Below are positions 13,136-43,694 of a stretch of DNA of 49,816 nucleotides, one piece after another (within the stretch, counting starts at the first letter, position 1; each line of letters begins with the position of its first letter). The notes beneath the pieces were generated by a model, which saw nothing but the letters and a program-made list of their open reading frames with translations, ran no database searches and was not told where the DNA came from. The translations under genes and the position numbers were made by a program. This DNA is from Proteromonas lacertae (Eukaryota): positions 1 to 49,816 of the forward strand of contig NGBS01000340.1 in NCBI GenBank assembly GCA_002245135.1, in the 5' to 3' direction.

Positions 13136-13168
<33 letters not shown>

Positions 13169-20900: not shown

Positions 20901-21119
20901 TTATATTTATTGGAAAGTAATGAAAGATTTAGAGAAATGATAATAAATAAAATGTGTGATTTAAATAACAATTTAAAAGAAATGAATTTATTCGATTTAA
21001 GTTACAATGGAGGTGGTATAAATACAAAGAAAGGTAGAGATGTAAATTCATTTCTATTTTGTCGTAGAACAATTCCTATACCATATGAAGCATTATTGCT
21101 ATATGTGTATAATTTGTGA
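17992..21119 (+). CDS. CR protein copy 2 (inverted relative to copies 1 and 3), different first exons, REase core deleted
   Basis: ATG 17992, intron 17995-18036, then ELKKRIYKRKRERTDIL; intron 19702-19739 joins ORFs 18283-19707 and 19800-21119 in frame; FPDIDA...QFTISKRH missing. Confidence 0.7.
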
Positions 21120-21172: not shown

Positions 21173-21649
21173 TATGTGTATAACATGTTACAAAATACAG
21201 ATTAATAGAAATATTAATAGATTTTTGTTATTATTTTTATTATCTGTTTATTATGATCACTTAAAACAGGGATGTATGAAATGGTCATGTCAGAAAGGTC
21301 GGTTTTTGACCAATTGGTTGATGAGTTTTTACTATTCTTGTATTTTGATGTTATACTTTCCAATGAGTAATACTATTACGTTATATATTTAATATATAGT
21401 TCGGAATGATATTAAAAATTTGAAAGAAAGATGACAAACTTTTTGGCTTGATAGAAATGTATTTTCTTGTATTTCTATATTTTCACACTTACAATCATTT
21501 AGAGTGAATTGTTGTGATATCAATAATATCTATGCTACTTAATTTAACTTCTGATAATGTTAGAAACATTTGTAGAGGAGTGTTTAGTCAAATTTCTCTG
21601 TGTCAGGCTATATTGAATAATAAAATGAGATATCAATTAATATTTATTA
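21173..21649. repeat. ~475-bp dispersed direct repeat, copy 2; ends at the left border of the virus-like island
   Basis: Matches 10338-10814. Confidence 0.85.
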
Positions 21650-21655
21650 TGAGAT

Positions 21656-22036
21656 ATCGATTGCATCGATGAAGCTCCCGTAAAGGTCAACTCTGAATCT
21701 AGAAAGGGACGGACTCCTAGAACACTCGTTAGAACTCTGTGACAATGTCCCATAGTCCCATTTACGTAAGGTTCCTACGGGATTCCTCCCAATAGGGCCT
21801 ACTTCTCAACGGGGTCTACTTCCCTACGGGAACTCCTGTAAGCTATTTCTATACCTACCTATACCTATCTATGAGACGATCTCCTACGGGTACTCCTGGA
21901 AGCTATCTAGAAGTGTTGGTTACCTCGAGGTGATGAATCTAATCACGTTCTTGACTCTCCTTGCTACGCTGGTGACCTTGTAAGGGCTTTTAATTGAACC
22001 GTGGAAACCAATCGTGGAACCGGGAGTTTACAATTG
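21656..22036 (+). repeat. Left terminal inverted repeat, truncated at the hairpin tip
   Basis: Reverse complement of 34517-34697 plus 36822-37006, roughly 90% identical by eye; begins ATCGAT-TGC-ATCGATGAAG. Confidence 0.9.
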
Positions 22037-22220
22037 GTAACAAGTTAACAATTGTTAACAAGTTACCAAATGGTAACTCCGGGAGGTTCTAGCTAGTTGT
22101 GGATTTCTCAAGGGCCCTTAAAGATAATGATTAGCAATCTCGGAAGGCTTGTGAAGGTATGCTTTTCTTACTATATCTAGGAACAACCCGACAACTACAA
22201 GAGACTAACAAGACTGATAA

Positions 22221-22637
22221 TTACTTAGCTGATGATAAATTAACTAGTGCGTCTAGAGCATCTTCCATTACCTGGTGATTTCTTAGCTCAGAGAATCGTC
22301 TATCGATGTATTGCTTTAGCTGAGTGATGTTGAATTGCAAGGAGTAGGAGAATTGAAGGAGGTCCAATTCATGAAGAAGATAATTACGAAGGCTAGCTGC
22401 TAGCTCAATTCCCTTGTAATATTGCGGGTCCTTGAGGATAGGTATATCAAAGATAGCACTTACTGATTGTTTCACTTGATCGTAGAAGCTACCAGTCACT
22501 GTTGATGGGAACTGAGTCTTGACTTCTCCGGTGCTTACATTTAAGCTACTTTCAAAGGCCTTACAATAGCTTTCTAACTCAAGGTGGATCTTATCGAATT
22601 GACTTACTACTTGAAGAACATTGTCCTGGACGATCAT
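22221..22637 (-). CDS. Island hypothetical protein, family 'ILxDPxYY...LRxYLL' (may be the frameshifted 3' part of 22634-23293)
   Basis: PILKDPQYYKG...LRNYLL...LKQYID matches VILNDPEYYNA...LRDYLL...LKEFIN in 25415-25780. Confidence 0.5.
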   Translation of the reverse strand: MIVQDNVLQVVSQFDKIHLELESYCKAFESSLNVSTGEVKTQFPSTVTGSFYDQVKQSVSAIFDIPILKDPQYYKGIELAASLRNYLLHELDLLQFSYSLQFNITQLKQYIDRRFSELRNHQVMEDALDALVNLSSAK

Positions 22638-23293
22638 CCGATGAATATGAAGATAAGCACTTTCCCGTAGTTGATAAGTAAACCATCCTTTACAGCTCTC
22701 AGTATCGATACTAAGTCCAAATTCTTACTTACCAAGTGCCTGTACCTTCTAATAGCAATATATGACTCCTTGCTCTTACATCGGAGATTCATCTTCATTG
22801 TTATCAATGCCTTATCACGATAGCAGTCCAAGGAAGTCCTCAGTAGTAGTAACTTGTAATGGGCTATGATCAATGGTAGGTATAAAGGATCGGTAATCTT
22901 GAAGCTCTTAAGTACTCCATCGTAAAGCTTAGTGATCTCAGTAAGTTGCGGACTTACCTTGTTGAAGACTTTAAGATAATCCTGATCGTTAATGGGAGTG
23001 TCTTCTACGTCCTTACCATGAATGATAGTAGAGTCCAGAGTTACCTTGCTATGGATTATCGGGCTGATGTACTTATCAATGGCTTCCTTGTTCCGATATG
23101 GTTTACCATCGATGCGTAGTTTAAGTAAAGTCATGGTGATCTCTTCAATGGACTTACGATAGTTGGTAACTCTCTCTGTTAAGGTATGACGATAAATTCC
23201 AGGCATGACTTTCATTCTCGGCAAGTGACTCTCAACTCTCGGAGTCTTTGAAGGTGCAATGGGAACGTAGCTATGTTTTCTCTTGACGGACAT
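22634..23293 (-). CDS. Island hypothetical protein
   Basis: 219-aa ATG-initiated intronless ORF with island-type codon usage; no recognised domain. Confidence 0.5.
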   Translation of the reverse strand: MSVKRKHSYVPIAPSKTPRVESHLPRMKVMPGIYRHTLTERVTNYRKSIEEITMTLLKLRIDGKPYRNKEAIDKYISPIIHSKVTLDSTIIHGKDVEDTPINDQDYLKVFNKVSPQLTEITKLYDGVLKSFKITDPLYLPLIIAHYKLLLLRTSLDCYRDKALITMKMNLRCKSKESYIAIRRYRHLVSKNLDLVSILRAVKDGLLINYGKVLIFIFIG

Positions 23294-23509
23294 TTGCGAT
23301 GATGATTTTAAAGGAAAAGTACAACTACAGATTTCTGTCGATTCAAAGGACTGAGTTTACAATTACGACTTACCGATGTTAGTTGAATTAGTTTAAGGTA
23401 TTATCAAGGACTAGGATAAGTTAATGAACAGGTAAGGCAAGACATCTACGATAAGGTAAAGTCATCGAGCAATCGATAGTAAGCAATTTCCTAGAGGTTC
23501 AAAGGATTC

Positions 23510-24085
23510 ATGTTCACTTGTAGTAAATGCCATCGGAAGCTACCTCAAGAACTGAAGAAGGATGGGAAGGGCTTCTACAAGAGATGCTATAGCTGCCGTG
23601 AGCGTGATGAGATTAATAGAAGACGATATCAACTTAAATGTTTAGCACGAAGACAAGGCATAGAGTCAGGTAGAATTTCATTGGATGGAACACTACCTTG
23701 TTGTCTTTGCTATCATAACATACCGGTGAATTCATTCCTGAAGAAGACTGGAGGTTACTATAAGTGCTGCGATCAATGTAGGAGTATCAGTAAACAGTAT
23801 CATAAGAGAATGAAGGAATTCAATCGCCAGCTCAACATTATCGACAACTCCAATATTAAAGATGTTCAATCTACTAATCAAGGTAAAGTCATCTCCTCCG
23901 AGGAAGGTGCTTCTGATAAAGTTATACTCAAGGACTATCCCATACAGGTGAACTTATCGGTGTTAGCAAAGCCAGACAATGTCGAGGTAATCAACTCCGA
24001 GGAAGCGCATAAGGAGACGTTCATCGATCAAGTAAAGCGTGGATTCCAAGAGCTACTTAAGATGATCGGACTCAACAAGAACTAG
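23510..24085 (+). CDS. Double CxxC...CxxC zinc-finger protein (paralog 1)
   Basis: CSKC...FYKRCYSCR and LPCCLC...FLKKTGGYYKCCDQCRS. Confidence 0.7.
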   Translation: MFTCSKCHRKLPQELKKDGKGFYKRCYSCRERDEINRRRYQLKCLARRQGIESGRISLDGTLPCCLCYHNIPVNSFLKKTGGYYKCCDQCRSISKQYHKRMKEFNRQLNIIDNSNIKDVQSTNQGKVISSEEGASDKVILKDYPIQVNLSVLAKPDNVEVINSEEAHKETFIDQVKRGFQELLKMIGLNKN

Positions 24086-24249
24086 GAACTGGGATCATGA
24101 TCAAGACAATGATGAGTAAGTCAATGGAGGCCACTACAATTAACTCAAGGAAGGTAAAAGACCCGATAAGGAATAGATAAGGTACTGAAGGATAGGTGAT
24201 CATCAGCTAGTAAACAAATTCTCTTTACCTAGCAATTCAAGTCCCCAAC

Positions 24250-24525
24250 ATGAATATCATCTTCCGAGTAATTGTAGTCTCCTTACAAGATGCCCTCAAT
24301 TACTTATACGAGAATTTCATGTTCCTGACTAACGCGATGGCAATTGGAATCATCGGTACATTCCTTCTTTGTTTCAACTTTGCTAAGTGGTGTTGGACTC
24401 GTAGTAAGTGTTGTTGTAGATGGTGCTGCTTCCTCGGGAGTATTGTAGTTACTTTCATCGTCCTCTTCATAATAGTCACGATCATTACCTTGGTAAGCAA
24501 TGGAACGCCCGTAGTTGTTAGTTAA
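24250..24525 (+). CDS. Small membrane protein with Cys/Trp cluster between two hydrophobic segments
   Basis: AIGIIGTFLLCF-NFAKWCWTRSKCCCRWCC-FLGSIVVTFIVLFIIVTIITLV. Confidence 0.5.
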   Translation: MNIIFRVIVVSLQDALNYLYENFMFLTNAMAIGIIGTFLLCFNFAKWCWTRSKCCCRWCCFLGSIVVTFIVLFIIVTIITLVSNGTPVVVS

Positions 24526-24744
24526 GCCTTACAGCTTCGGTCTTTACAATGATGTGGTATGGGGACGATCATTAACAATAAACCAAGGAGTTCAAAGGCC
24601 TTTAAGTTAAAGAGCTGAAGAAGATGGAAGCTCCCTAGAAGTCAACTCCGAGAAGACAACTTCAAGAAGACAGCTTCAAGATCGTGGCTATGAAGTTGTA
24701 ACCCAACACAAGGCAAAGTAACTATGCTGATGATATTATCAATA

Positions 24745-25338
24745 TTAATAATAAGTCAAGGAGTTGATTAGGGATTCAGTATCGTCCAGGGACCTCTGGA
24801 GGCCATCAGCATCATCAATGATCATCTTCAGGTAGTTGAAGGATTCAGAAGGTGGAATGGCTAAATCATTATCGTGAAGCTGTAGGAGTCGGTACTCACG
24901 GAGTGTAGAGAGCTTAGTATGGATGATTGAGTAGTTCCCATAATTGTCAACGATGTCAGCTCCATGCAAACAACCATTGGGACTTCTATCTTGAGCAGCT
25001 AGCAAGTCATCATGATCTTTCATGATAAGGTAAGTCAAGGACCATAGTTCATCCCTAAGTTCTCCATGCCTGATGTAATTCTCTAGATCATTATCTGAGT
25101 CGTAAAAGTTTAGCTAAGGGTGCTCCCTGATTAAGCTTCCCATCATTCTATTGCAGTGGTTGTAAAGAGTAGTGGATTTAAGAAGACATCTCCTGGTAAG
25201 CTTTACGCACCTGTCTACGACCTGCTTATCGATGACTCCATTAGCATTGATATTGAAATGGACTGGAGATCTCTTAGTCATGGTAAGTGTGTATGCAACT
25301 AAAGCAAGAGATTTTTCAAAGGTAAGGAAATTGAACAA
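24745..25338 (-). pseudogene. Island hypothetical gene split by one in-frame TAG
   Basis: ORFs 25114-25338 and 24745-25038 share a frame: REHP*LNFYDSDNDLENYIRHGELRDELWSLTYLIM. Confidence 0.5.
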
Positions 25339-25414
25339 TACCGGAGATGTTCAAGGAGATGATCAACCCAACACAAGACAAGAAGCAAAGGTAAGGACTA
25401 GATTATAACTTAAG

Positions 25415-25780
25415 CTAGTTACTGAGAGTCTGGATTGCTATCGATGATATGGACAAGGATGATAGAATCTCTTGATCCTTGTGAGTTCTACGATCAACGA
25501 TCTCCTTACCGAGTAGGTAATACTTATTGATGAACTCCTTAAGGGACTTCGTAGCATTAGCCAGGCAATTGATCATAGGCAAGATGTTGAAGCAGTTAAG
25601 CAAGTAGTCTCGGAGTACACTTACTGAAGGAGATGCATTGTAGTACTCAGGATCGTTAAGGATGACAAGACCATAAACACGATGGAAGGTAGCTTCTCCT
25701 AGCTCACGTAGATCAGTCCTTGGATCACAAGTCCCTAGTAGTAATAGTTTTCTAGGATCAATGTTACGCCTTACGATATT
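25415..25780 (-). pseudogene. 5'-truncated paralog of 22221-22637
   Basis: Shared ILxDPxYY/LRxYLL motif; composition shifts at ~25780, where an AT-richer segment replaces the 5' end. Confidence 0.5.
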
Positions 25781-26121
25781 TAAAAAGTGCAAGAAATTTG
25801 AAACTAGATGAAGTGTCAATTCATAAGCATTAATTGTAAAATGCCAAATGCAATGCATAGTACCAGTGTATTGGGTATTAGTCAAAATAGTATTGAATTT
25901 AGTCGTTACAAGATAGTCAAAATAGAATTGCAAACTAGTCGTTTCAATATATGAAGGTATATATACATGATTGAAGGTTCTTTTCCTTGGGGGCGTAGCC
26001 CGAATGGTCAGAGGAATGCCGTAGGAAGTACTAGCCCAGCCGGGTAGCCCAGCCTGGTTCAAATCTTGCTAAAGGAAATAAAAGTTAAATAGGCGCAGCG
26101 CAGCTAGCATGAGAAAGAACA

Positions 26122-26184
26122 CCGTTGAGAAGTAGGCCCTGTTGGGAGGAATCCCGTAGGAACCTTACGTAAATGGGACTCTGG
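26122..26184 (-). repeat. Internal partial copy of the terminal repeat (right-end orientation)
   Basis: ccgttgagaagtaggccctgttgggaggaatcccgtaggaaccttacgtaaatgggact is the reverse complement of ~21754-21812. Confidence 0.9.
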
Positions 26185-26421
26185 TACATCATAAATCCCA
26201 AAAATAACAAAATTACTCTTAACATATTTACAGTGGATTTTGATGAAGCTATACCATTATATGTCACTCAGATAGATAAATTCAAAAATTGGCCTCATGC
26301 CAATGTATTGTTCTATGGAAATCATTTTTACCCAATTATCAACCTCAATGCATTTTTATTACCATTAAAACAAAAATGTAGTAATTATGTAGAAAGATGT
26401 CCATATTGCTTCTGTAGAGGT
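26185..26421 (+). pseudogene. Fragment resembling the N-terminal region of Polinton/Maverick protein-primed PolB
   Basis: NNKITLNIF...IPLYVT...HANVLFYGNHFYPIINLNAFL...CPYCF follows the pattern N.ISINVF...IYPL.......HVNLL...HY..I.NL..LL...C..C that I recall from Polinton pPolB. Confidence 0.55.
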
Positions 26422-26422
26422 T

Positions 26423-26619
26423 AACACTTCTCCTCTGGCATCTGACAATTGCTTAAGTTCTTTGAATCGTGATTGAAGCTCCTGAGAATGCTTTGTGTAC
26501 ATCTCCTGGAGGTAGTTCTTTTGTTGGCTTCTACAACTAGGACATCGGATATAGTATCTCTTATCAGGCATCTCAAAGTCTCGGGCATTGAAGCACTTCC
26601 TGCATTCTAAGCAAGGTAA
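26423..26619 (-). pseudogene. Zinc-finger paralog 2, truncated at 5' by an element terminus
   Basis: Extending ORF 26365-26571 upstream gives LPCLECRKCFNARDFEMPDKRYYIRCPSCRSQQKNY, cut at 26620. Confidence 0.7.
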
Positions 26620-26620
26620 A

Positions 26621-26858
26621 TATATAGTATATAAATGGGACCCTGGGACATTGTCACAGAGTTCTAACGAGTGTTCTAGGAGTCCGTCCCTTTCTAGATT
26701 CAGAGTTGACCTTTACGGGAGCTTCATCGATTGCATAGTCCCATTTACGTAAGGTTCCTACGGGATTCCTCCCAACAGGGTCTACTTCTCAACGGGGTCT
26801 ACTTCCCTACGGGTACTCCTGGAAGCTATCTAGAAGTGTTGGTTACCTCGAGATGATG
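26621..26858 (+). repeat. Internal copy of the terminal repeat including the probable true outer end (TATATAGTATATAAATGGGAC), inner palindrome arm deleted
   Basis: 26621-26641 is the reverse complement of 37052-37072; 26644-26731 is the reverse complement of 21665-21752; 26734-26858 matches 21751-21935 minus a ~60-nt segment. Confidence 0.9.
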
Positions 26859-27282
26859 GTAATGAAGAGGCAGTGATCTCTTTCGGAGTATGGGTAAGAA
26901 CGTCTCAGAGGAAGCTTCCTTACCAAGGACGATGTTGCGGAGCAATATCGAACTTGGATAGGAAGGTTCCTTCGTAGACGTTCTTGTCCATGCCCGGAAG
27001 AAGAACTGCTTTCTTCATTACCAGGATCATTGAGAAGGTACTTTCATTTGATCATCATCCAGGGTTGTTGAATCTCTTGGAGTTGTTGCTGCCCGACAAA
27101 GCAAGGTAAACTATTTGCACCATAGTTGGGCAGCTCCGAAGGTGGTCACTGATTATAGTTATCCTCTTGCTTAGACTTCCTCTATCTATTGCTTTCCCAT
27201 AACTTCAGTCTCGGTATCGGCTTTTCCTGTAATGTTTTTGATCGATCCCAAGACAGAACCTTATCGATGAAGATTGCAATCC

Positions 27283-29748
27283 TTAGTTATACAAAGTAGT
27301 GCAAGTGAAGATAAGCGGAAGGTCGAAGGAAGATGCTGCTATACTCTCTTGAAAGAAAGTAAGCTGATCTTTACCATTGAAAGTCATAAACCCTGAACGT
27401 CTTGTTGATTTACCAGTCTTGAGAATATGCACCCAATAAGAGGTTTTATTCTCGAGGTGAAATGCCCTTAAGAAGCAACATACCAGATCGTCACTCGGGT
27501 TGACAATAACTATTCCATCAAATGAGATTGTTATGTAACTTCGATCTGTTGCAGTGATGGATAGCTGAACTCTGTTCGGATAAGCCGTAAAACAACCTTG
27601 GCAACTATTCACGTAGCGAGGTATTGTAATCTGAAGGTTCTGTACTTCAGCGATCACGGTATCCTGACTATTAAGGATGTAGTTCCACATTGAAGTCAAG
27701 GCCTCATTCATCTGATTAGCTACCGTGGTAATCTCCGATGATCCATCTCCTTGAGATGCCAGGCTTTCTACTGATGTCTTTAACTCGGACAACTTCTTCT
27801 GGACATCCTGGAAATTGCTATCGACGGAGTTGATTTTACTTAATTGAGCTGCATTGGTAAAGTTGTTTACTTGAGTCACAGCCAGGTTGTTGAGGTTGTT
27901 GACTTTGACTTGGACTTCAATGACTCTTGTCTGGCAGTCTCCTATCTTTGAATGTACTTCATTGACCTTGGTTAATTGAGCTGGTGAACAGAAGCTATTG
28001 ACATTCCCGGTATTGAATCCATCGATCTTGGTTCTGATAGCAGCTGTATTGTTGATAGCTGTATCGATCAGTCCTTTACGAGTATTGTTAAAGAAGCCAT
28101 CCAAGTTCCTTCGGAGGTTGTCTTCTTCAGTCCTTCTAGCCACGCCGCAGGTTGCATTCACATCATTGATACTTAGAGAATCCACCTTGATCTTGATTGC
28201 ATCGGTGTTGGCCTTAGTTGTATCAATGAAGTTACCACTGCCTTCAGTACAGAACTGGTTAAAACTCTCCTTGTTGAGGTCATGGACACGTTCATAACGC
28301 TTATCTATCTTCTCCGATCGATCCGAAGTACAGAAGTGCTTCACAGCAGTGTTGGTCTCATCGATAGCAGCACTTCTCGGAATAGTACAAAACTCCTTGA
28401 TCGCGTTGTCAGCATCGTCGATCTCCTTAGTTCTCTTATCGGTAATGAATCCTTTGATCAGTTCCTCAATACTCTTGACAATGGTAAGTCTCTCCAAGGA
28501 GCAGTAGTTGTTAATGTCTTCGATGGCTATGCCGGTGATCAGCTCATGGACTTTATCAATCTTCTCCTTCTGTGAGCTACTACAATACTGGTTGATATTA
28601 TCGATATCTATCTTACTTACAATATCCTTGTTCTTGTCAATAGTGGTAGCTCTCTCCTCAGTGCAGAAGGTATTCGTCTTGTCAGCTTCTCCATTCAACT
28701 CGGCGATCTCTTCCTCCATAGCATTCATCTGGTTCTTAAAGTCCTTGTTGTAACCATTGGCAATCTCAATCTCTTGTAAGACCTCCTTGAACTTAATCAT
28801 GTTGTTGTTAATCACAGTATTGATTGCCTTGTACTCCTCGTAGTTGTTCTTCATCTTGATCAACTCCTCAGAATCTACTTTGATCTGCTTCTCTAAGTCA
28901 GTGAGCTTCGTAAGGCTCTTATCATCCACCGTAGTGATGTACTTGATCATATCGTAGACGTTAACATCCCCGATGTTGAGACTCTCGCATAATGACTTCA
29001 ACAAGGTATTTAGACGATCCAATTTCTCATCCTCTGATCCCTTCAATTGATCGATTGAAGTATTGGTGGATTCAATGGCATTGCTTACATCCTCCATGCT
29101 CTTATACAACTCTGGTAATTGCTTCTCCGTGTACTGCTTAAGTTCATTGCTGCAAGTAGCAATATTGCTCAAGGTTGTAATAGTCGTATCTCCGAAGTCT
29201 TTAGGGATCTTGTTGTTAAGTAAAGTACCTAGGTTCTTAACTTCCTGGAGCTTCTGATCGATACCTTCAATCTTATCAGTCTCATCTAGCACTTCCTTTA
29301 AGGTCGATTGAATAGCTTTATGATCTGGTTGTAAGGTATCTTGAAGGTACTCATGGAGTTGATGATGATCAGTCTCTAGCTTAGCCAACTTCGTAGATGA
29401 CTCCTCCGAGTGATCATCCTACTTTCTCTTGATAGCTGTTGTGGATGAGGTTACTTCTTCTTGTTGCTTCTGATTGATACTGACGGGTGTTCCTCGGAGG
29501 ACTTCTTGGATAGTGCTTACCAATGGAGGATTGATCTTATCATAGTCTATCACGGCCTTGAGTTCACCAGAACCCAAGGCCTTTTGAATCACTTCCTGGG
29601 AGTCTTGAAACAACACGTCCTTATCATACTTAACAACAACCTTCCCATCTATCTTTTGCTTCACATCGTAAGTAGTCTTGTCGATAGTATTAAGTAACCT
29701 TAACATCTCCTCATCGTTCTCCCGTAAGTTGTTCCCGGTGTTGAACAT
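27283..29748 (-). CDS. Long coiled-coil, fibre-like protein with internal N-x-F/Y-C repeats and a beta-rich C-terminal domain; one in-frame TAG at 29419-29421
   Basis: ORFs 29419-29748 and 27283-29388 share a frame (KRK*DDHSEESSTKLAKLE); repeats such as INQYCSSSQKEKID, IKEFCTIPRSAAID, VKHFCTSDRSEKID, FNQFCT, VNSFCSPAQLTKVN. Confidence 0.6.
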
Positions 29749-31160
29749 TGCCTAGGTAATGATTCCAGATCAGAACTTTACTTATAGATCCAGGAGCTAC
29801 TTTACTTAGATGACTTCTCAGGTATCTATTATATCATAACATGCCCTGGCCTTCAACAGCTTTGCCTACCTCCCGAGAAGTACCTTGTTAACTCTATCCA
29901 CACGATGAACTTCAACTACTTACGATTACTAGCTGATGGATGTAGATGACTTTATCGGTCTTTGTAATGAGTTGCGTGATCTCTATGCTGTGAACTTCAT
30001 AGTCTCGATCATCATCTACCATCTTAACTTACAATGCTTCTATTCCGATAAGACTTATACGATGGTCAGAAGCCTCCTTTGAAGTTCAGCTACTCTCCGT
30101 AGACTTCACTTGCACCTAAGATTTCCAAGGATCTACTAATCGTCTCTCTATTCCAGATGCTCCTTTACCTTCTTGGACTTCTCTGACTTGGCAGCCATTA
30201 CCTATGAAGTACTTTGTCTTCACTCTTGGTTCTAGCAGTCTATGATCCACTGCTATGATAAGTACCTTGAGACTGACTGCTGAAGTTAGAGTTGATCTCA
30301 TCCTTAACATCTCTTGAAGAACTACTTGTGATCTTTACCGATACCTATCTCTTGAACTGATGGTAACCCTTCAAGTGACAATTCCTTCTAGTTCTAGTTC
30401 ATCGAAGTTGTTGATCCTCAGTAATGTACTAGCCTTCAGTCTGATCACTACTAGTCTCGGCATTGTTATTGAAGTCAGTGTCTTTACCTATCTACTATTA
30501 ATCACCTTACGATCGATAGCTTATAGACTCTTGGACATCTATGCCAATGTTGCTACTTGAGGAGTATACGATATCTCTGGTCTACTTACTTACTTACTAG
30601 TAATGATTCCTAGCATCACAAGTAAGGACTACTCAGGTAAAGGATTATCGATCACACTTCCTATAGTCTGCAATTGTAACTCTTTATGTACCTACAACTA
30701 CTTCATGATCTTCAGAGTCATTGATCCAAGGATGTTATCTCGGGGTTGTTGATGTCCTTACTATCATTGACTTATCCGAGACTCCTTTAGTTTATTTAAT
30801 TGATTACTTACCATGTCCTTGAGTTGCTCATCTCCATAAGACTCCTTGAATTGATTATTTCTATTGTCCTCGGTCATACCCAAGGTAACATTTTACTAAG
30901 TACCAACAATGTTAATCACGTTCCTTATCAGGAGATGCGTTTACTACTACTACTACTACTACTTGTGGAAGTTATGATGACTTTGCCTGGTAAGGAGTTG
31001 CTTCAGAAGCTAGCTTTAGATACTTCGCTGAAGGATCACTTGAAGCACCTAGCGATGGTACTGAGGGTGTTGTTATCGGTCTCTTCTTCGAAGGATTACT
31101 AAGCTGTTTTTGTCTCCTCATTGATTCTATCCTGAGTCGGAGATGATCTTCATATTGTCT

Positions 31161-31751
31161 TTAGCGATGATACAGACTCAAGAGACAGCACATCGGAAGT
31201 GACTTTACCTTTAGATCTACGTGAAAGTTGATGTGTCCATCTTTGATAGATAAAACTATCTTGGCCTGGCAAGACTTCTCTTTGAGGTGAACAGCATCAC
31301 ATGGAAATGAAATAATCTTATCGAACATCCCATCATGGTCGATTAGATCATTGTTATCCTTGATTGTCTTAAGAATCTCATGTATACTGTGTTGCATAAG
31401 CTGATTAATTATATCCCTTGTTTTATCAATGGAGTTGATGGAGATTCCTGGTTGTTGATTCTTAGTAGGTTTCCCAGATCTACATCTTGGACAATATCGA
31501 TAGTAGTCTCCATTGGGCTTTAACATCATCGATGAAGCGAAGTGCATATAGCATCTACTGCAGGACATAGTCTTGGCTATGAGTTCACCGTTCTCTTCCA
31601 AGGCTTTACGTTCCTCATGGCATCGGGCTATTGTCTTCTGCTTTGCCTTTCGTAAGAGAGCTCTACAAGAACTACAACTGCTGTATGCTCTTCCATCAGC
31701 TTCAGATTGGAACTCCTTCTTACATCGACTACATTTGACGATGGATTGCAT
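31161..31751 (-). CDS. Double zinc-finger protein (paralog 3)
   Basis: CSRC...GRAYSSCSSCR and CSRC...LKPNGDYYRYCPRCRS; ATG at 31751. Confidence 0.7.
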   Translation of the reverse strand: MQSIVKCSRCKKEFQSEADGRAYSSCSSCRALLRKAKQKTIARCHEERKALEENGELIAKTMSCSRCYMHFASSMMLKPNGDYYRYCPRCRSGKPTKNQQPGISINSIDKTRDIINQLMQHSIHEILKTIKDNNDLIDHDGMFDKIISFPCDAVHLKEKSCQAKIVLSIKDGHINFHVDLKVKSLPMCCLLSLYHR

Positions 31752-31930
31752 GGTTACCAATTAAGTATAAAAATAACTAGAAATATCTTAATGCCTTGAG
31801 TGACTGTAATAATAGACTGGTTACTACATATTAATCTCATGGTTATTAGATACTTGTTTATTAGCTTTACTTTTATGAGTTCTTATTCATATCTCGGGAA
31901 TGTTGACTTCATAAGGCAACTGTGGTAAGT

Positions 31931-32875
31931 CTAATTCATCATCATCACATCCGATATGGGACTTAAGTCATAGTCATCTTCGGGGTGTTGGTTCAGCTGC
32001 TGGTTATCTTGTCGATAGTGACATGGTAATCTCGGAACCTTTATCTTGATGGACAAAGTAAGTTCATTGTCTATGGGTTCTTCCATTATGTACTCTCCGT
32101 AGTCTACTTCCAAGGGATTATCATGTTGTTGTTGATCACCATCATCATCCTTGGACTCCTCCAAGTGATTCTTATCATTGACTTCAAAGGGATTGGAATA
32201 CTCATGTAGTTGTGAGTCCAAGTCCATCTCCATGCCATTGATAAACTCGTCCTCATTCACTAGATTTACATCTTCGTGAGGTGTCAACTCCTTGGTTGGA
32301 TCCTTTATAAGCTTTCTTAAAGACTCCTGGTTGAGTTGATCATCATCAACTACAATAGACTTCTTCTTCTGGGTAAGTTGCTCCATAGCTTCCATGGTTG
32401 AATCTATTACTGGGTACTTCAAAGGCTCCTTGGAGTCTCTTAAGTTGTGATAGTTCTGAAGGCTTTGTTGGTGCTGATGATGTTGGCGTTGTCGTTGCTT
32501 TAGGTTAAAGTATCGTTGGCTTTCACGGGACCTACATTCATCACAATGAGCCAAGTACTTTCCATTAGCTTTCTTAGTGAAGCTACTTACTGGTAGATAT
32601 CGTTTGCAGTGTAAGCATGGTAGAGTATCGGAAGGATTAGTTGCTAGTTGTTCAGCTTGCTTTCTCTTACGTCTTAATTCTTCATACCATCGAAGCTGGC
32701 CTTTGGAGTTGTATCTACTTGATTCCTTGTAATAGTTTTCATCCTTGATCTTGTTGAAGCAATCCAGACATAAGCTATCTCCTTGCCTTCCATTCCTTGA
32801 TCCTTGATCGATAAGTATCTGCTGGTGACATTCAACACATCGGGATTGATAACTAGGTTGCGAGTCTGAAGACAT
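31931..32875 (-). CDS. Double zinc-finger protein with acidic tail (paralog 4); likely ATG at 32875
   Basis: CVEC...CLDC and DTLPCLHCKRYLPVSSFTKKANGKYLAHCDECRS, close to GTLPCCLCYHNIPVNSFLKKTGGYYKCCDQCRS of paralog 1. Confidence 0.7.
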   Translation of the reverse strand: MSSDSQPSYQSRCVECHQQILIDQGSRNGRQGDSLCLDCFNKIKDENYYKESSRYNSKGQLRWYEELRRKRKQAEQLATNPSDTLPCLHCKRYLPVSSFTKKANGKYLAHCDECRSRESQRYFNLKQRQRQHHQHQQSLQNYHNLRDSKEPLKYPVIDSTMEAMEQLTQKKKSIVVDDDQLNQESLRKLIKDPTKELTPHEDVNLVNEDEFINGMEMDLDSQLHEYSNPFEVNDKNHLEESKDDDGDQQQHDNPLEVDYGEYIMEEPIDNELTLSIKIKVPRLPCHYRQDNQQLNQHPEDDYDLSPISDVMMMN

Positions 32876-33713
32876 TTCAATAAGGTGAGTATTTTGAACT
32901 CCTAGGAAATTGTGAATTGGCTTCTCCTGGTAATTCCAACGATTCAGCTTCAACTAAATGGCATCTATACGATCAACACTAGTACTAGGTACAACTATGG
33001 GACTTTGAATTTACGATTGATAGGTACTACGATCCATTCCTCCTCCTTCATCAGCTCTCCTGATACTTGTTTCATTACGGTGTCAGCTACATCCTCCAGT
33101 ACCTTCTTTACCTCCCTGTTGACTACAATCGGAAGCCACTCCTGATAAGCCTTAAAGATTCGTAAGTATCTCTCGGTGTGAAACTTAAACTCCTTCAGTG
33201 TTGTACTATGCTCATCTTATGATTGTAGACCTTCTGGGGATCATCCTTCAGTGCTGAAGACTCTGTGGGTAATGGGTCGTAGAGATAGAGTACTTGCATT
33301 ACTTTGTAGATCCCTTGCAAGTTCCCATGCAGGTTCCTATGCAGGTTCCTATTCAAGCTCCTTTGAAAACTACTAAGGCTGGTAAAGGTAAGAGATCTAC
33401 AAAATCATCCTTTCCTACTCCTCCAGCATCAATGAGCTATTACTCTAACTACAATCCTTATGCTGCTTACGTTCCATCATTCGGAGGAGTCTATCAGCAA
33501 CAGACCCAACAAGTAACAACCTTATCCAGATACTTCTAAGTTCCTTAATCACTTATCGTTGATAACCTTGAGTTGTTTAAGGGCTACTACAATCATCTTC
33601 TAGTATCTATCGGAGATACTTGTTAATACGTCCCTGACATCTCCTATCCGATGATATCTATTTGCTTATTGTCCATCCCTACATAAAAACCTTTAAGATC
33701 TTAGGTAATTTAC

Positions 33714-34150
33714 TTAAAGGCAATGATCACCATCGCAATAGCTTACTTCAATCGGGAATGGTTGATTGTAGTCTTCATCTAGTTCATTTCCTTGAACTTC
33801 CTCGGGACTTAGATCGATCTTGTAATCCTTGAGGAGCTTCTGATAAAGTCAGGTTCTGATACTTGTTGTAGGAGTCGGTAATACTCCTCCTTGGAGATCT
33901 CTTCATAAGGCATCTGCCGGTAGGTTGTTTTCATCTGGTCAGTGGCAATTGAAGGTAAGAATGATACTACTGAACGAAGGCTGGCAACATCAACTGGGAA
34001 GGAGATCACCGAGGTTGTCTCTGGGCAATAGAAGTCATCTTCAATCGGATACTCTTGCATGTTCTTCAACCAGCAAATACCAGGCTCTCCATTCTTCCGT
34101 ATGTGTTCAGTTATATTGCTATAGTCCATTCCTTTGACTGCAAAGGCACC
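33714..34150 (-). pseudogene. nrdJ: Collapsed class II (adenosylcobalamin-dependent, monomeric RTPR-type) ribonucleotide reductase
   Basis: FAVKGMDY...NGEPGICWLKNM | YPIEDDFYCPETTSVISFPV | VSFLP...YRQMPYEEISKEEY; after a frameshift, C-terminal YCDGDHCL* (stop 33714-33716). Confidence 0.8.
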
Positions 34151-34172
34151 ATAGAGAAGTTGAACCTCAACC

Positions 34173-34487
34173 TTACTTCCTTTTGTATAGATCTCCGATC
34201 CTTCCATATCCACTTATAAGGTGGCGATGGAACTTGGCAGACAGGTCTATGATCTCAGCATTGAAAGAAACATCATCATCGTCTTCATCCTTGGAGTTAG
34301 TGATTGTAAGTGAAGGTTTAGGAGGGAGAGGAGGAGGAACATCATCATCATCAACAGCAGCAATCATCTCAGCCTTCAACTTCTTATATTCCGGCTTAAG
34401 CTTAATTCTGAACACTTTAGTGTCTTCCTCATCGCTGGAAGATTCCTCGGAGGCATTGTCAGGTCTAGTTCTCTTCATGATATTCAT
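34173..34487 (-). CDS. Island hypothetical protein (acidic, PPPLPPKP motif), first ORF inside the right repeat
   Basis: 104-aa ATG ORF starting ~30 bp from the inner border of the right terminal repeat. Confidence 0.4.
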   Translation of the reverse strand: MNIMKRTRPDNASEESSSDEEDTKVFRIKLKPEYKKLKAEMIAAVDDDDVPPPLPPKPSLTITNSKDEDDDDVSFNAEIIDLSAKFHRHLISGYGRIGDLYKRK

Positions 34488-34697
34488 GGATCAGAAAAGA
34501 CTCAATGGAGATCTTAACAATTGTAAACTCCCGGTTCCATAATGAGTTTCCACGATTCTATTAAAAGCCCCTACAAGGTCACCAGAGTAGCAAGGAGACT
34601 CTAGATCGTGATCAGATTCATCACCTCGAGGTAACCAACACTTCTAGATAGCTTCCAGGAGTACCCGTAGGAGATCGTTTCATAGATAGGTATAGAA

Positions 34698-36813
34698 CTG
34701 AGTTCGGCAGGGACAGGGACAGGACGGGACAAAGGACGGACAAAACTCTAAATGGACGTCCATTGTCGAACTATAGGATGTAATATCATAAATATAATTT
34801 TTTTTTAATTTTTATTGAAAAAAGAGGAAAAATTTATACTATATGGTATTAATTAGTATTTAATAATCAATAACAAGGACTGCCATGTTCAATATTTACT
34901 ACTTCATTATCTTCCTCTTCATAATTTTTATTAATTTCTCCTTCTATTTCTTCATCATTTATTACATCTATATCTTCATCACTTTCATTCTCCTCCTCTA
35001 ATTGAATGAAATTTTCATTTTTTCTTTTTTTATTTAATAAATAGAATTTAATAAGTAATATGTTGTTAAGTGTATTTATACTTAATCGATTTCTTAAGTG
35101 GCTGTGTATAATACCTTCTATGGAAAATGTACGCTCTATATAAGAATTAGAAGTGGGGATATTTGATAATATGTCATATATCCTCTTCAAATTTGGGAAA
35201 TAATTTCCATATGTTGAATACCAAATAACCGTACACTTTTCCTCAAATATAGTTGATGGGCTGTTATTATAAATCTCTTTATTCTCAAAATAATATATTT
35301 CTCTTGCTAAGTATTTATCACTAATGCCTGAAAAATTATCTATGATGAATTTTTTTATTTTATTTCTTTCAGATTCTTCTAAATTGTTTTCTAATTGTAG
35401 AAACATATATATCAAGATCATCTCGTAATTTACATGTCGCATAGATTCTGTTATTATATTGTCTATTGATTGTTGTTCTGTTGCTGTTAATTTTCTAATA
35501 TCACTATTTAATTTTGATAATATTAAGTATGCATCTTTCAAATTAGAACTGTCCTTACTAAGAATATGAATTTTGAGCATCCCTTTCTAATATGAGGAAC
35601 TTCACCATTGTTTTCATAAATAGTTTCTCTTACACTTTTGCAGGTATTTATTTTATGTTGTATGTTGTTGCAATAGTCTAATATTACTGTATATTTTGGC
35701 AATTCTAAAATATGTTTGCTTATGATGTTCAGCACGTGGGCTAAACATCCAAAGCTTATGACTATATGTCCTGTCGAATGTTCTACTATATCTGCTAAAC
35801 TTCTCATTGTAATATTGTTGTCTGATACTATTGAATAAATCCATTCTAAACTTATTTCGTACTTTGAAAGAGTCTGTTTTATTACATTTACAAGATTCTT
35901 TGCAGTTTCCTTTTGTTTAATTATAACGCTTTCTAAAAACACAATCTTATTTTGCTTTATAGCAAAATTGAAAATGTTATCATTATTGGTGTTTCTCCAC
36001 CCGTCTAGAAGTAAGGTAATTTTATTATTTTTTATTATTGATTCATTTACTAACGTATTACCCTTTTCATTGATCATATCTTTTATTTTTTTGGCTGAAG
36101 GTATTACTACATTATTTTGACTTAATTGACTTAATAGTGTTTTAAATGATGCACTTTCTACTATCATATCTACAATTATATCGTTAATTTCTAGATCTTC
36201 GGCATAATTATACTCTGTTATTTGTGTTTGTGATGAATTATTCTTTTCATAACATTTGTGATGTACGACATTTCTTGCATTGTATTCTTTTATTTTTCCC
36301 ACCATTTTTATCTATTACTTCTTCCAAAGTTTTTAAATCATAATAACCCCAAACTTTATCTCTTACTCTCGCTGGTAATGACATTAAAATGAAAAAACTT
36401 GATTAAAACAAGCCAGAAAATGTTTTGTATAGAATTTATGGAGTTATAATCAAAGAAGATATTTCATTATAGCAAAATGTTGTTATATATCATTCATTTG
36501 AGTTATTACAAATGTAATATGTCGTGATTAGAAGTAAATATAAATATTGTTAATTAGATATAAGATGGGATAAAAAATGAGTAAAAATAATTAAGTACGA
36601 TTACAATATGTTAATATAATAGTATAATTGAAAAATAATATATATATTTGTTAATTTTTCAGTAGGCAGGAGTATAATGCGTTTTATGGATATAAATAGT
36701 ATTTTTGTCAATTTATTACAAAAATACTAAAAAAAATATTACAAAAAGTAAAAGTGACAAAAGGGACAAAGAAAGGGACAAAAGTCGAAAAGGACGTCTT
36801 TTGCCTAACTCAG
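34698..36813 (-). mobile_element. hAT DNA transposon 1 (2116 bp)
   Basis: TIR CTGAGTTCGGCA / TGCCTAACTCAG (11/12); 8-bp TSD GTATAGAA at 34690-34697 and 36814-36821; GGACA subterminal repeats at both ends. Confidence 0.95.
34867..36305 (-). pseudogene. hAT transposase, frameshifted at ~35560
   Basis: LLLDGW, IVSDN, CLAHVLN, W..YG..FPNL, IPTSNSYIERTFS...RNRL; two overlapping ORFs, RW motif region missing. Confidence 0.9.
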
Positions 36814-37103
36814 GTATAGAAATAGCTTACAGGAGTCCCGTAGGAAGTAGACCCCGTTGGGAAGTAGACCCGGTTAAGAATCCCGTAGGAACCTTACGTA
36901 AATGGGACTATGGGACAAGTGTCAGAGTTGTAACGAGTGTTCTAGGAGTCCGTCCCCTTCTAGATTCAGAGTTGACTTTTACTGGAACTTCATCGATGCA
37001 ATCGATGAAGGCCCGTAGAAAACTCGTTAGGACTCTGGCACTTGTCCCAGAGTCCCATTTATATACTATATACCTATAAATGTATGTCTATGTAACTCGC
37101 ATA

Positions 37104-39308
37104 TAAGGTGCTAAAAACTGCGCCAGTTCTACGATATTTCTACGTTGCCGTGGTGCCGGCCGGCGCTGGGTTTCATAAAAAAATAAAAAAATAAATAGTG
37201 AAGGGGGAGTGATTTAAAGTATAAAAATGTATTGAAATTGCTATATAATGTAACTATAAAAAAATAATTATCAAAAAATAATCTTTATTCTTTTTTATGA
37301 GTTTTCTTTGTCAATCTGCTATATTTTTTGGACCAAAATTTAGAGATGGTATTGTATATAAAAGAAAATGCATCCTATGCAATTTTAACGTCAATATTGG
37401 TATTTATTTTATAATAGATATAATTAGGTACACAAAAGGATTCAAACACATCACACTTAAAAAGCCATCTAATGAAGAAACATAAATTTAGTGAAGAGTG
37501 TATTAAAAACAAAAATTTAATCTAACACTTTAATCAGACAACAATACCAACATACAGCAATATCAATAGAAAAATTCTTTACCAATACGTGGCAGCGTTA
37601 CACATAGATTGTCGACCTTTGCGATTTGGAGATGGATATGGGTTTAGTAGTTTTTTTAATACATTACATATAAAATTACCTACATATAAGCAAATATCAG
37701 ATACAACCGATTCAATAATATCGTTAATAAAAATGAAAATGGAATGCGACATAGAAAACACTAAATTTGTGAATATTCAAATGGACCATTGGAAAGGTAA
37801 AAGGACAAACTACTTAGCTATTTTTGTGGACTTCATGAAAGATATGAATATTACATCTTATTTAATATCTACAAAACAAGTAGATAATAAAAAGTCTGAA
37901 ACTACATCAATTATACTAAACAATTTACAAAATACTATATTACATGACAAAATAATAACGGCAACAAGCGATGGTGCCAGTGACATGGTAGCAGCTATTA
38001 AGATGTGCTCCTTTATACATATACATTGTTTTAGTCATCGTTTACATAACGCATTATTAAGATCGGAAGTTATAATTAAAACATCTGTGAATAAATTTAG
38101 TATACTCCTTGATCATTTAAACAGGAAGGACAATTTCTATGAAGAACTAAGGAAAGTTTTAATATTAAAATATAATCAAGAAAAGTTAAATATAATAACT
38201 GCCAAAATACCAAGTGCTATAGATGTTAGATGGTTCTCTTGCTACGACATGCTTCAACATTTTGTTGAATCTTTTAATGATATAAGATCCTATATTCAAG
38301 TAAATATTATTTTCAATTTAATTATTTTGTAATTATTAATAGGTTATTGATAAAGATTACACAGAAGAGTTCCCAAATAATAATGATTGTGATTTAATTG
38401 TAGAAATAGTAAAAATACTTAAACCCCTAATCGAATTACAGAAAAGGTTGATTCAAAGAAATCGATGTTCATTAACAATTATAATTAAAAGATTAAAAGT
38501 AGTTCATAGAATACTAATTATAAAGAAATGTATAGTTTAAGATTGAAAAAATCAATTAATGCAGCCGTAAGTGGTTTATGTTTAGAATATATTGAAGAGT
38601 TGCTTAAAAGATTTAGTAATACAGATAAATATAATTATTTATGTATAGAAAAATTTCCTTCTGAGGTAAAAGAATTAAAGATAACATCATTGTTGAATCC
38701 ATTAAATTATAAGTTGATGGTAAAAGATGATTACAGAGAGTTATTATATGAAGAAATCTGTTCAGTAATATCATTGACTCACACAACAAATGCTGTAAAA
38801 AACATATATGAAAGTGAAGAAGATGAAGAATATTTACATTCAGATAATGTCGCATTAAAAAATATAGCGTTTGAAATATCTACAAGTTATATTAATGATT
38901 GTAAGAAATATTGTGAAGAATATTATAAAACATTTGAAATAGAAATATATGATAAATTTGACTGCTTAAGTTATTGGCAATCCATACAAGATAAAACATA
39001 TTTCAAATATTTTGAACCTTTAATTCAACATTACCTACCTATTGAAGCAACAGAATTTAGTTGCGAAAGTCTTTTTCATTATGGTTGTATGATAAATTCA
39101 GATTTTAGAACAAGATTAGAATCTACAACAGTTTCAAATACATTATTTCTAATAGGAAATAGAAAAGAAATGTTTGATATATTAAATAACATAACTGATT
39201 AAATATTATATACTTATTATGTTTTTATTTTCTCTAAGTACAGGAGGCGCTCGCCTGGTCGGCGCTGGCGGTGGATGCCTGCCTAGGGGGGAGGCGCCAA
39301 ACACATTA
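37104..39308 (+). mobile_element. hAT DNA transposon 2 (2205 bp), a different family from hAT 1
   Basis: 8-bp TSD CTCGCATA at 37096-37103 and 39309-39316; imperfect ends TAAGGTG / CACATTA; GCGCC/GCCG-rich subterminal tracts. Confidence 0.9.
37297..39202 (+). pseudogene. Spliced BED-finger hAT transposase with premature stop and frameshift
   Basis: Intron 37400-37427 yields CILC...TSHLKSHLMKKH (BED finger); in-frame TAA 37523-37525; QMDHW, TSDGASDM, HCFSHRLH, DVRWFS; intron 38300-38342; shift at ~38520; YW...IEATEFSCESLFH...RTRL. Confidence 0.85.
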
Positions 39309-41096: not shown

Positions 41097-41129
<33 letters not shown>

Positions 41130-42997: not shown

Positions 42998-43694
42998 ATT
43001 ACTATCTATAACTAAATTATATATAAAAAGAGAAAAAAATACCGAATAAAGGAGGTGCGAATAATTCAAATGATTGTGAAAATAGCCAATCAAATCATTC
43101 AAAATGAATTATCAAGCATTTGGCTTGATCATAATTATTTTTAAATCAATTTTTATTGTGATGTAGAAGAAGATTAAAACTAAATATTTGTTAATACCAT
43201 TGCACTGCATAAAAATGTATAAATATTATGTTATTTGACCTAAACAATAATTGTAATAGAATGTTGTGTAATTTCCAAAAGCTTGAGTATAATCCATTTG
43301 AATGTTTATAAATTCTAATAAATAATCCTTGAATATAATCCAGTTGAGCAAATCTCCCTTATATCCAAGAAATGAAATGATGGAGATAGAATACTTGACT
43401 AATTTACTTTGAATTAGTAAACTAAGCAGGGTTGTATAGATTGGTGATTGATTGTAGTTGTTGACTGTTTGATATAACTCTGATTTAGATTATTATACTG
43501 ATTTACAGAAAATACTACCTTCTTATGCTGTATCACTACCTCAGGTTTTAACTAATAATTAATATCAAACAAGAATCAACCTTTCATTATTTTATAATGA
43601 AATTCAACAAAATACAATGTAATATATAAATAAAAAACACTTACATCACATCAGTTAAAGACTAATCTACAAAAATAATATATAAAATAAACCA

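Follow-up and report, generated by a model that had tools for sequence, protein, structure and literature searches.

In a 49,816-nt stretch of contig NGBS01000340.1 of Proteromonas lacertae, which was analysed as a whole and is termed the window, a block at 21656..37072 (unstranded) stands out from its surroundings. A first-pass annotation had taken this island for a decayed copy of one linear dsDNA virus or plasmid-like genome with long inverted termini. We thus asked from what kind of molecule the island derives.

Extent and composition of the island

Compositional analysis revealed a GC content of 40.7% across 21656-34695 against 24.6-27.1% in the flanking DNA (0.41 versus 0.25 for the whole island), and the left edge was placed at 21658 by likelihood. 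Minus a nested hAT element, the island measures about 13.3 kb, close to the 13 kb annotated. The GC3 of its ORFs is 0.46, compared with 0.18 for host and hAT ORFs (n = 9). It holds ten ATG-initiated ORFs of at least 100 aa, compared with 0.57 in first-order resamples (maximum 4, n = 100), and five of at least 190 aa, compared with none. This ORF excess and the difference in GC3 show that the island genes were shaped outside the present host genome. Among its stop-free frames, only a coiled-coil-like ORF exceeds 340 aa, and the island-like DNA at 29750..31160 (unstranded) is decayed or scrambled, with no long ORF in any frame. The annotated picture of rearranged, partly decayed foreign DNA that lacks introns and is embedded in host DNA is therefore supported. 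The decayed stretches are rich in TAA and TAG. An alternative genetic code was rejected, as the long ORFs are open in the standard code and recoding yields no coherent extra gene set.

The nested hAT (34698..36813, minus strand; 26% GC) is host-like and lies within J3, one of the copies of a repeat termed J. Its annotation as a hAT was confirmed; it has transposase domains (PF05699, E 1.4e-6; PF04937, E 5e-12), 12-nt imperfect inverted ends and an 8-bp target duplication, GTATAGAA, at 34690 and 36814. This insertion bears on the possibility of an assembly artefact, in which contaminant DNA was fused to host sequence and the repeats came from misassembly around a hairpin. Palindromes and repeats do trouble assemblers, and the flanks are duplicated host segments, with 10338-10817 matching 21173-21652 at 96% and ending 3 bp short of the island. 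However, a 26%-GC hAT sits in J3 between exact 8-bp duplicates, which speaks against a contaminant join, and host-like DNA is also interleaved with the island as an AT-rich scrap between J4 and Z2. Moreover, the copies of J differ by patterned substitutions, which are not expected from copying errors of one locus. We consider an artefact very improbable. The segment at 10338-10817 was also examined as an empty site and rejected; the sequence downstream of it differs from the right flank, so it is no clean pre-insertion site.

Repeat J and its four copies

At its fullest, J comprises a segment beta, an inverted 100-nt arm, the trinucleotide TGC, the arm, and a segment alpha with 17-nt tandem repeats. 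It is present four times in the island, each copy truncated differently, in at least two sequence variants. J1 (21656..22040, plus strand), the annotated left terminal repeat, retains a 6-nt stub of the inverted arm, TGC, the 100-nt arm X and alpha with its 17-nt tandem repeats. J2 (26621..26858, plus strand) runs from beta through the inverted arm and TGC to alpha; a deletion has removed the greater part of its second arm as well as 60 nt of alpha. J3 consists of an inner part of alpha (34514..34697, minus strand) and an outer part (36814..37072, minus strand) with alpha, arm, GCA, a shortened second arm and beta, whereas J4 (26119..26189, minus strand) is a 71-nt piece of arm end and alpha. 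An 18-nt palindromic tandem repeat lies just inside J1 (22025..22078, unstranded). In the outer part of J3, an imperfect palindrome spans 36899-37061; its apex (36988-37010) is a perfect 10-3-10, and its folding z of -11.9 was matched by none of 200 shuffles. The repeat DNA had no match in IMG/VR, JGI metagenomes, GTDB or plasmids. Five loci fitting a looser apex pattern were discarded, having nothing else in common with the island.

The annotated long inverted termini are thus real as repeats, but they span about 385 bp rather than 400-500 bp (21656-21856 against 36812-37006, 90.5%; 21859-22040 against 34514-34695, 92.3%). They do not hold as unique bounding termini, given the extra copies at 26119-26189 and 26621-26858 and the extension of the right copy via the palindrome to 37072. 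Comparison of the arms revealed no difference between J1 and J2 over alignment columns 1-88, whereas both arms of J3 carry three common variants (columns 77, 80 and 81) that J1 and J2 lack. These shared variants indicate that the arms of J3 were copied from each other before insertion, and are not expected from decay afterwards. Furthermore, TGC reads towards alpha in all three apex-bearing copies. Hairpin-ended linear replicons show flip and flop forms of the terminal loop, so the identical orientation points to one fixed junction rather than two flip-flop hairpin ends, and such a replicon was rejected. Different genes adjoin each copy of J, as expected if deletion variants share a cis-element. 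Of the annotated virus or plasmid-like genome, the foreign decayed element stands, but a single linear molecule with two termini is too simple for four copies of J. The supposed termini are copies of one internal junction in at least two variants, a pattern better explained by several related molecules, pieces of which lie in tandem.

J1 and J2 bound a 5,067-bp unit I (21665..26731, unstranded), whose inverted ends are identical over 88 nt. It has TGC at either side and a direct repeat, ATTGCAT, at 21660-21666 and 26730-26736. Perfect inverted ends with a flanking direct repeat would suit a non-autonomous DNA transposon family of the Pack type, with fragments of genes taken up as cargo and TGC or ATTGCAT as the target duplication; a ribonucleotide reductase (RNR) relic and ORF E are such fragments, and two hAT-like elements lie in the neighbourhood. 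Against this, TGC occupies all three apexes, inverted in J3 as well, and one three-letter spacer at every apex, even inverted, belongs to the element rather than to the target. In addition, J has no similarity to either hAT, most ORFs are whole, and the cargo GC3 of 0.46 is unlike that of the host, leaving a Pack-type family decidedly unlikely. DIRS-type tyrosine-recombinase retroelements carry reverse transcriptase and recombinase genes and an internal region complementary to both ends. This class was rejected, as no matching gene was found and J2 copies the junction itself, not a join of the island's outer ends.

Gene content and its relatives

The four annotated zinc-finger paralogues were confirmed, all six pairs outscoring each of 300 shuffles. 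Z1 (23510..24085, plus strand; 191 aa) has two CxxC...CxxC zinc-finger-like units, Z3 (31161..31751, minus strand) has 196 aa, and Z4 (31931..32875, minus strand; 314 aa) ends in an acidic tail. Z2 (26365..26640, minus strand) is truncated, without a start of its own, and is cut by J2 and an AT-rich insert. A 20-nt motif is retained upstream of Z1 (23484..23503, plus strand) and Z4 (32893..32912, minus strand), 18 of 20 positions being identical, and the two proteins share only about 28%. The motif is a likely promoter; its pattern was built from these two copies, and its chance figure is no test. The annotated second paralogue pair was likewise borne out, ORFs A (22221..22637, minus strand; 138 aa) and D (25415..25858, minus strand; 147 aa; 30% over 54 aa) scoring 77 against a shuffle maximum of 50 (n = 1000).

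The start of A overlaps the stop of ORF B (22634..23293, minus strand), a phage-like trait. B is a 219-aa orphan predicted, at low confidence, to be helical; a search against 1.84 billion representatives gave two matches, both rejected as sums of weak similarity to repeat proteins. A 91-aa ORF (24250..24525, plus strand) with two hydrophobic stretches and a Cys cluster is predicted to encode a small membrane protein, and its weak MscL match (E 0.006) falls far short of the cut-off. ORF C (24745..25281, minus strand) has about 178 codons, one of them an in-frame TAG (25114-25116). The 104-aa product of ORF H (34173..34487, minus strand), which begins directly inside J3, is acidic and rich in Pro. 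An exact-match protein collection contained none of 10 window proteins. The tRNA-like look of 25990-26070 was dismissed, with no ARAGORN gene, no Rfam family at gathering score and a folding z of +0.7.

The coiled-coil-like ORF (27283..29748, minus strand; 821 codons) has irregular Cys-containing repeats, an in-frame TAG at codon 110 (29419-29421) and a C-terminal end predicted to be beta-rich. It had been annotated as fibre-like, yet no fibre relative was found; homologues numbered none among 7,992 scored candidates, and none in IMG/VR, phage records or GTDB genomes. ORF E (26173..26424, plus strand; 83 aa) has its ATG within J4 and an AT-rich, host-like body (26200-26396). At 26-27% GC and a GC3 of 0.22 it is unlike the remaining island, and this composition gives it the look of a separate captured scrap. 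We take it to resemble the vOTU-region motifs of polinton pPolB, but the annotated pPolB-like identity found no match in any library, nor was a pPolB N-terminal (vOTU) remnant matched in profile or homologue searches, IMG/VR included. AlphaFold modelling of two island proteins from single sequences gave poor models (mean pLDDT 41 and 48), and fold searches were fruitless, which is no evidence on the folds of these proteins.

The annotated class II RNR (NrdJ) remnant was confirmed, with 48 of 147 candidates at E<=0.01. The relic (33809..34207, minus strand) consists of three collinear pieces fused in one frame, corresponding to about residues 310-341, 518-540 and 598-637 of a roughly 655-aa enzyme. 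It keeps about 96 residues; the whole enzyme (about 650 aa) is absent, and the window holds no further RNR piece. The middle piece has a mean score of 43, compared with 23.7 for shuffles (maximum 30.1, n = 100). Sequence homology assigns the relic to monomeric NrdJ, with a weak TIGR02505 match; its best identity is 49 of 91 residues, and the tree is unresolved (support 9). Homologue searches of IMG/VR and phage records with the relic were without result, and the best single piece (22/32) matches a eukaryotic cellular enzyme. At first pass RNR had been counted as typical cargo of large DNA viruses. The relic is not diagnostic of a large eukaryotic virus, since enzymes of its class are found both in phages and in microbial eukaryotes. 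Small PLV-sized elements, as described in the accessible part of the literature, do not include RNR in their gene sets; its presence here implies that the parent was much larger or that the gene was captured from a cell.

Several of these genes bear on a bacterial origin, namely bacteriophage or phage-plasmid DNA with a protelomerase-type or att-type palindrome, taken up from the microbial surroundings and integrated. Class II RNR of this kind is frequent in phages, which account for 541 of the 601 stretches matched in IMG/VR, and of 80 RNR-bearing viral loci, the 8 with genes listed look like large phages; no island protein besides the relic matched at the 80 loci. The Atlas clusters nearest to Z1 consist of virus proteins (score 0.93), which is only a lead towards a viral origin in general; where known, they are mostly Uroviricota. 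Atlas matches in general fall mostly in phage clusters, island proteins give weak PHROG matches (E 0.002-0.008), and B and A overlap start to stop. However, bacterial expression signals are not in excess, with Shine-Dalgarno sequences at 1 of 11 starts against a 15% background, 4 terminators against 8.7 in shuffles, and no promoter excess of bacterial type in the island. Three proteins were unmatched in 50,697 phage records, and none was found in IMG/VR or GTDB genomes; homologues of Z1 numbered 0 of 36 in a scored search and none in IMG/VR, and those of Z3 none in phage records. Protelomerase sites are perfect palindromes, whereas the apex of J leaves 3 nt unpaired. A phage source is therefore unlikely.

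Comparison with known systems and origin of the island

As at first pass, no capsid, packaging ATPase or integrase was recognised with Pfam, PHROGs and NCBIfam profiles, nor was a polymerase or helicase. The term virus consequently rests on gene style. Eukaryotic relatives were considered in turn, beginning with a non-autonomous Polinton, PLV or transpoviron-like linear derivative, in which the 88-100-nt arms would be true terminal repeats of several adjacent insertions. A pPolB-region scrap may be in common, ORF E putatively resembling the vOTU-region motifs, although its host-like composition suggests separate capture. Except for the coiled-coil one, no ORF has the length of pPolB or a Tlr1-like superfamily 1 helicase, and no helicase match was obtained. 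Intact pPolB and rve integrase had no Pfam match in ORFs or read-through frames. In size and repeat length the island resembles Polintons/Mavericks, including the Blastocystis MELD virus, as far as the available text of the sources goes (12.7-24.6 kb, TIR 46-1,447 bp; PMC8097293; PMC8502044). It differs in lacking a recognised core gene and, as annotated, in its ends, which are ATCG (ATCGAT/ATCGATGAAG) and show neither (AG)3 nor (AGT)2, the motif given for vertebrate Mavericks in the accessible part of PMC8097293. No 6-bp target duplication is common to the flanks at 21655 and 37073 of the present copy, whose right end may be lost.

Protists commonly carry GC-distinct EVEs with TIRs, by the accessible text of PMC10120064. 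The island, at 13-15 kb, resembles the endogenous PLVs, virophages and tandem or degraded Polisuviricotina insertions of protists in the portions available of PMC10120064 and 10.64898/2026.10.13.758929: it is intronless and GC-distinct, its units lie in tandem, it has both inverted and internal repeats, and it is decayed. The island shares with them inverted terminal repeats and a GC contrast with the host. Unlike them, it has an RNR relic and a repeat that is a palindromic junction in four copies, and it lacks a recognised capsid, pPolB, primase-helicase, and rve or tyrosine integrase. A double jelly-roll major capsid, penton and packaging ATPase gave no profile match in libraries that miss divergent capsids. 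Transpovirons, by the accessible text of PMC8877843, have a 5-7 kb unit, short perfect inverted ends (TIRs of at least 77 nt), zinc-finger and small membrane ORFs and no capsid, as here, and the likeness may extend to helper dependence. However, the island has no helicase, sits in a cellular chromosome and shows no sequence similarity to them. Taken together, we regard such a linear derivative as possible but doubtful.

Egoviruses are linear DNA viruses of gut protists with 55-bp inverted terminal repeats, but at 160-360 kb they carry eight hallmark genes, none of which was seen in the island, and no gene-flux signal to Blastocystis is reported (10.1101/2024.03.23.586382). The hallmarks of Nucleocytoviricota, egoviruses included, and Mirusviricota (capsid, PolB, RNA polymerase, TFIIS, ATPase or terminase) were likewise not recognised in the 13 kb; as a possible fragment of a large genome, the island need not hold them. 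Defective interfering DNA-virus genomes and integrated concatemers, such as herpesvirus amplicons, baculovirus DIPs and AAV junctions, show a reiterated palindromic cis-element with arm deletions, a collapsed enzyme gene and mixed orientations. The island is alike in its reiterated palindromic J with arm deletions, collapsed RNR and mixed orientations; replication is putative here.

Our best explanation, which we hold at about an even chance, is that several defective genomes, integrated and arrayed in tandem, make up the island. They would stem from a eukaryotic DNA virus or satellite that is still to be described, and J was likely its origin or circle junction. The available part of 10.64898/2026.10.13.758929 describes small eukaryotic DNA viruses that integrate in tandem and carry internal deletions. 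In this putative model, J would be the head-to-tail junction of circles or concatemers, acting as an origin or recombination site. Molecules that retained J but lost enzyme genes would be replicated in trans by a helper, and related variants may have been joined to one another at J. The left end probably entered the chromosome via a crossover or microhomology join at the apex of J; for the right end, an unspecific join within beta is the probable route. Afterwards, the integrated copy would have accumulated stops and a transposon, and is presumably not mobile on its own. A bolder proposal, which we rate as rather unlikely, is a new class of eukaryotic DNA replicons that all share J as their origin and site of recombination. 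Members of such a multi-segment or satellite family would differ in their gene sets, form circles with three fixed letters as the spacer, and build up tandem arrays after integrating at the apex. The claim is limited by a single decayed locus without a hallmark gene. A literature search found no description of the island; most subscription papers lay outside it, and the supplements of 10.1101/2025.04.19.649669, which reports 781,111 viral regions in 7,103 assemblies, might list the locus.

DNA-virus islands are common in protists but are detected via capsid or polymerase markers, so an island like this one would escape such detection. With J as a precise probe, longer copies, a helper or an episome can be sought, and the question is thus open to direct test. 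If the host is of the gut-protist type suggested by its genes, few DNA viruses of such hosts are known (MELD virus, PMC8502044; no egovirus signal, 10.1101/2024.03.23.586382). If the new-replicon proposal were true, the island would give a first glimpse, at the genome level, of a DNA virus lineage of Blastocystis-like gut protists that has so far gone undescribed and whose proteins have hardly any detectable relatives.

Composition and coding of the island

Compositional analysis revealed a GC content of 40.7% in the island from 21656 as far as the nested hAT element (34698-36813), with the likeliest left edge at 21658. The flanks have a GC content of 25-27% and carry ordinary eukaryotic genes with introns of about 30 nt, among them a CIPK-like kinase (45804-47226, its 30-nt intron close to the start) and a serine/threonine phosphatase, both named from reading their translations. 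Such traits would suit an AT-rich stramenopile of the Blastocystis type, although this is a guess. For Blastocystis, the available part of one report (PMC12129017) describes low-GC isolates and 30-nt introns, and gives AT-rich isolates longer introns. The third-position GC is 0.46 in nine island ORFs versus 0.18 in nine host and hAT ORFs, and codon choice is opposite in the two groups (AAG, for example, 80% versus 24%). Furthermore, 10 ATG-initiated ORFs of at least 100 aa were observed in the island versus 0.57 in resamples, and 13 listed ORFs together account for 62% of 21656-34697.

By inspection, none of the island ORFs needs an intron. No stop codon interrupts the frames of ORFs A, B, D and H, the zinc-finger-like ORFs Z1, Z3 and Z4, or a small membrane ORF; one in-frame TAG each is present in ORF C and in the coiled-coil ORF of 821 codons. 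An alternative genetic code fails to account for the in-frame stops. A long frame is absent in 29750-31160 and 32900-33800. A plus-strand ORF of 70 aa (33327-33539), whose 12-nt tandem repeat gives QVPM-type units, lies within a block that is otherwise minus-strand.

Outside the island, an intron-poor pair of P-loop-type ORFs occurs in three copies that are 95-98% alike (18063-20981, 39950-42886 and 11986-14925), with variable 3' ends (365, 435 and 496 aa). Two of these copies make up a large inverted duplication (11669-15519 and 39633-43480), the spacer of which holds the island and a hAT. In a tandem array with a period of 1,950 bp (3320-8427), a gene encoding an EF-hand-like motif is present three times, and a short imperfect palindrome is present in host DNA at 16244-16296.

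Repeat J and the 5,067-bp unit

The first-pass annotation had placed the island between inverted repeats of 400-500 bp. Such outer repeats are present, at about 385 bp rather than 400-500 and with 90.5-92.3% identity once the hAT is set aside. Their match is part of one repeat, termed J, which in full would run as beta, an inverted 100-nt arm, TGC, the arm and alpha. In J1 (21656-22040), the inverted arm is down to 6 nt. In J2 (26621-26858), beta and the inverted arm are retained, but 60 nt of alpha and the greater part of the second arm are gone. J3 (34514-37072), which is inverted, has both arms, the outer one being 38 nt shorter, and forms a long hairpin (folding z of -11.9; 0 of 200 shuffles), and J4 (26119-26189) is a 71-nt piece. 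The alpha part of three of the four copies contains 17-nt tandem repeats; a palindromic tandem repeat with 18-nt units is found immediately inward of J1. Directly after J2, an imperfect hairpin-forming stretch (26878-27002) gave a weak match to a miRNA family (27.8 bits versus a gathering score of 105). Beside J4, 25879-26070 contains 35-nt and 13-nt tandem duplications, a GC-rich stretch and A-box-like and B-box-like words; a tRNA at this position was rejected by ARAGORN and Rfam.

The TGC loop is oriented towards alpha in all three copies that have it; thus the loop shows no flip-flop. The arms of J1 and J2 are identical over 88 nt, which makes 21665-26731 a 5,067-bp unit (unit I) whose inverted ends match perfectly and which is flanked by TGC on both sides. 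Three variants are common to both arms of J3 and missing from J1 and J2. The arms of one molecule were probably copied from each other, and J3 would derive from a variant other than that of unit I; the 8-9% divergence of the outer repeats would then not simply give the insertion age. Every copy of J leads into different genes.

Gene content and a possible phage source

The suspected ribonucleotide reductase (RNR) remnant is genuine, its ORF matching 48 of 147 candidates. What remains of the monomeric class II enzyme is three collinear pieces in a single fused frame: the first 310 residues are gone, as are about 175 and 55 residues between the pieces. The best identity among 56 sequences is 49/91, the tree does not resolve the source, and the best match of any single piece is to an amoebozoan enzyme. 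Class II RNR occurs in microbial eukaryotes, Blastocystis included, according to the available text of PMC3605638, and also in many phages.

Four zinc-finger paralogues, Z1-Z4, had likewise been proposed, and all six pairs score above 300 shuffles each. A 20-mer upstream of Z1 and Z4, found by eye, is identical at 18 of 20 positions. The nearest Atlas clusters of Z1 are unnamed virus proteins (0.90-0.93), which is a lead only. The second paralogue pair, A and D, also holds (score of 77 versus a shuffle maximum of 50). A phage source for the island would accord with the class of its RNR, with the neighbours of Z1 in the Atlas and with a single start-stop overlap; however, Shine-Dalgarno, promoter and terminator signals are not in excess, and nothing matched in phage or prokaryote collections.

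A search of 1.84 billion representatives yielded no credible relative of ORF B. Heptad-like stretches occur in the coiled-coil ORF, together with about eight Cys-containing repeats and a strand-rich end predicted with low confidence; its earlier naming as a fibre is a reasonable guess rather than a finding. A 200-bp AT-rich insert (26200-26396) carries ORF E, whose ATG is supplied by J4 and into which Z2 cuts. The motifs of ORF E seem to resemble the vOTU region of polinton pPolB, but its reading as a pPolB scrap was confirmed by no search. The vOTU domain of polinton pPolB is described in the accessible part of 10.1101/2024.03.18.585575.

Integration and a putative model

The hAT inside J3 has host-like composition and an exact 8-bp duplication. 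About 30 bp past the island, a second hAT-like element (37105-39307; PF05699, E of 2e-4) with GC-rich subterminal stretches is flanked by a 10-nt duplication (37095 and 39308); it has no DNA similarity to the nested one. Host segment 10338-10817 matches the left flank at 96% identity. At the left join, the host sequence immediately preceding the apex also occurs 22 nt upstream, in a stretch that itself resembles the apex, which suggests that this end was joined through microhomology. A target duplication is missing at the outer ends of the island, and no clean empty site was found. An assembly artefact as the origin of this arrangement is unlikely.

Unit I has exactly the form expected of a circle that opened at the apex. 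In a putative model, J would mark where circles or concatemers meet head to tail, and the chromosome would have captured, as the island, fragments from two or more variants that had joined at J. We infer all steps of movement, since the island yielded no gene for replication or integration. The island looks like a defective, helper-dependent genome, because a palindromic cis-element is kept in several copies while internal deletions have shrunk the sole enzyme gene that can be recognised. This state is reminiscent of herpesvirus amplicons, baculovirus defective particles and AAV concatemers.

In how it works, the island resembles the small-virus insertions, degraded and in tandem, known from protists, as outlined in the available parts of PMC10120064 and 10.64898/2026.10.13.758929. 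In contrast, it fails the end tests for Polintons (from the accessible part of PMC8097293), as the first-pass annotation had anticipated, and lacks the helicase of transpovirons given in the available text of PMC8877843. Comparison with egoviruses (10.1101/2024.03.23.586382) and mirusviruses (PMC10827195), going by the available portions of both, needs a hallmark gene, and none was recognised in the island. The accessible part of PMC8502044 reports a MELD virus from Blastocystis. The available parts of PMC10690189 and 10.1101/2025.04.19.649669 make no mention of the element, nor was its description found in the literature searched.

Taken as a whole, the initial observation of a virus-like island is partly confirmed and its interpretation partly supported. 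That the island marks a new class of replicon is rather improbable; it is endogenous virus-like DNA in a protist, which is a known kind, placed in no family.
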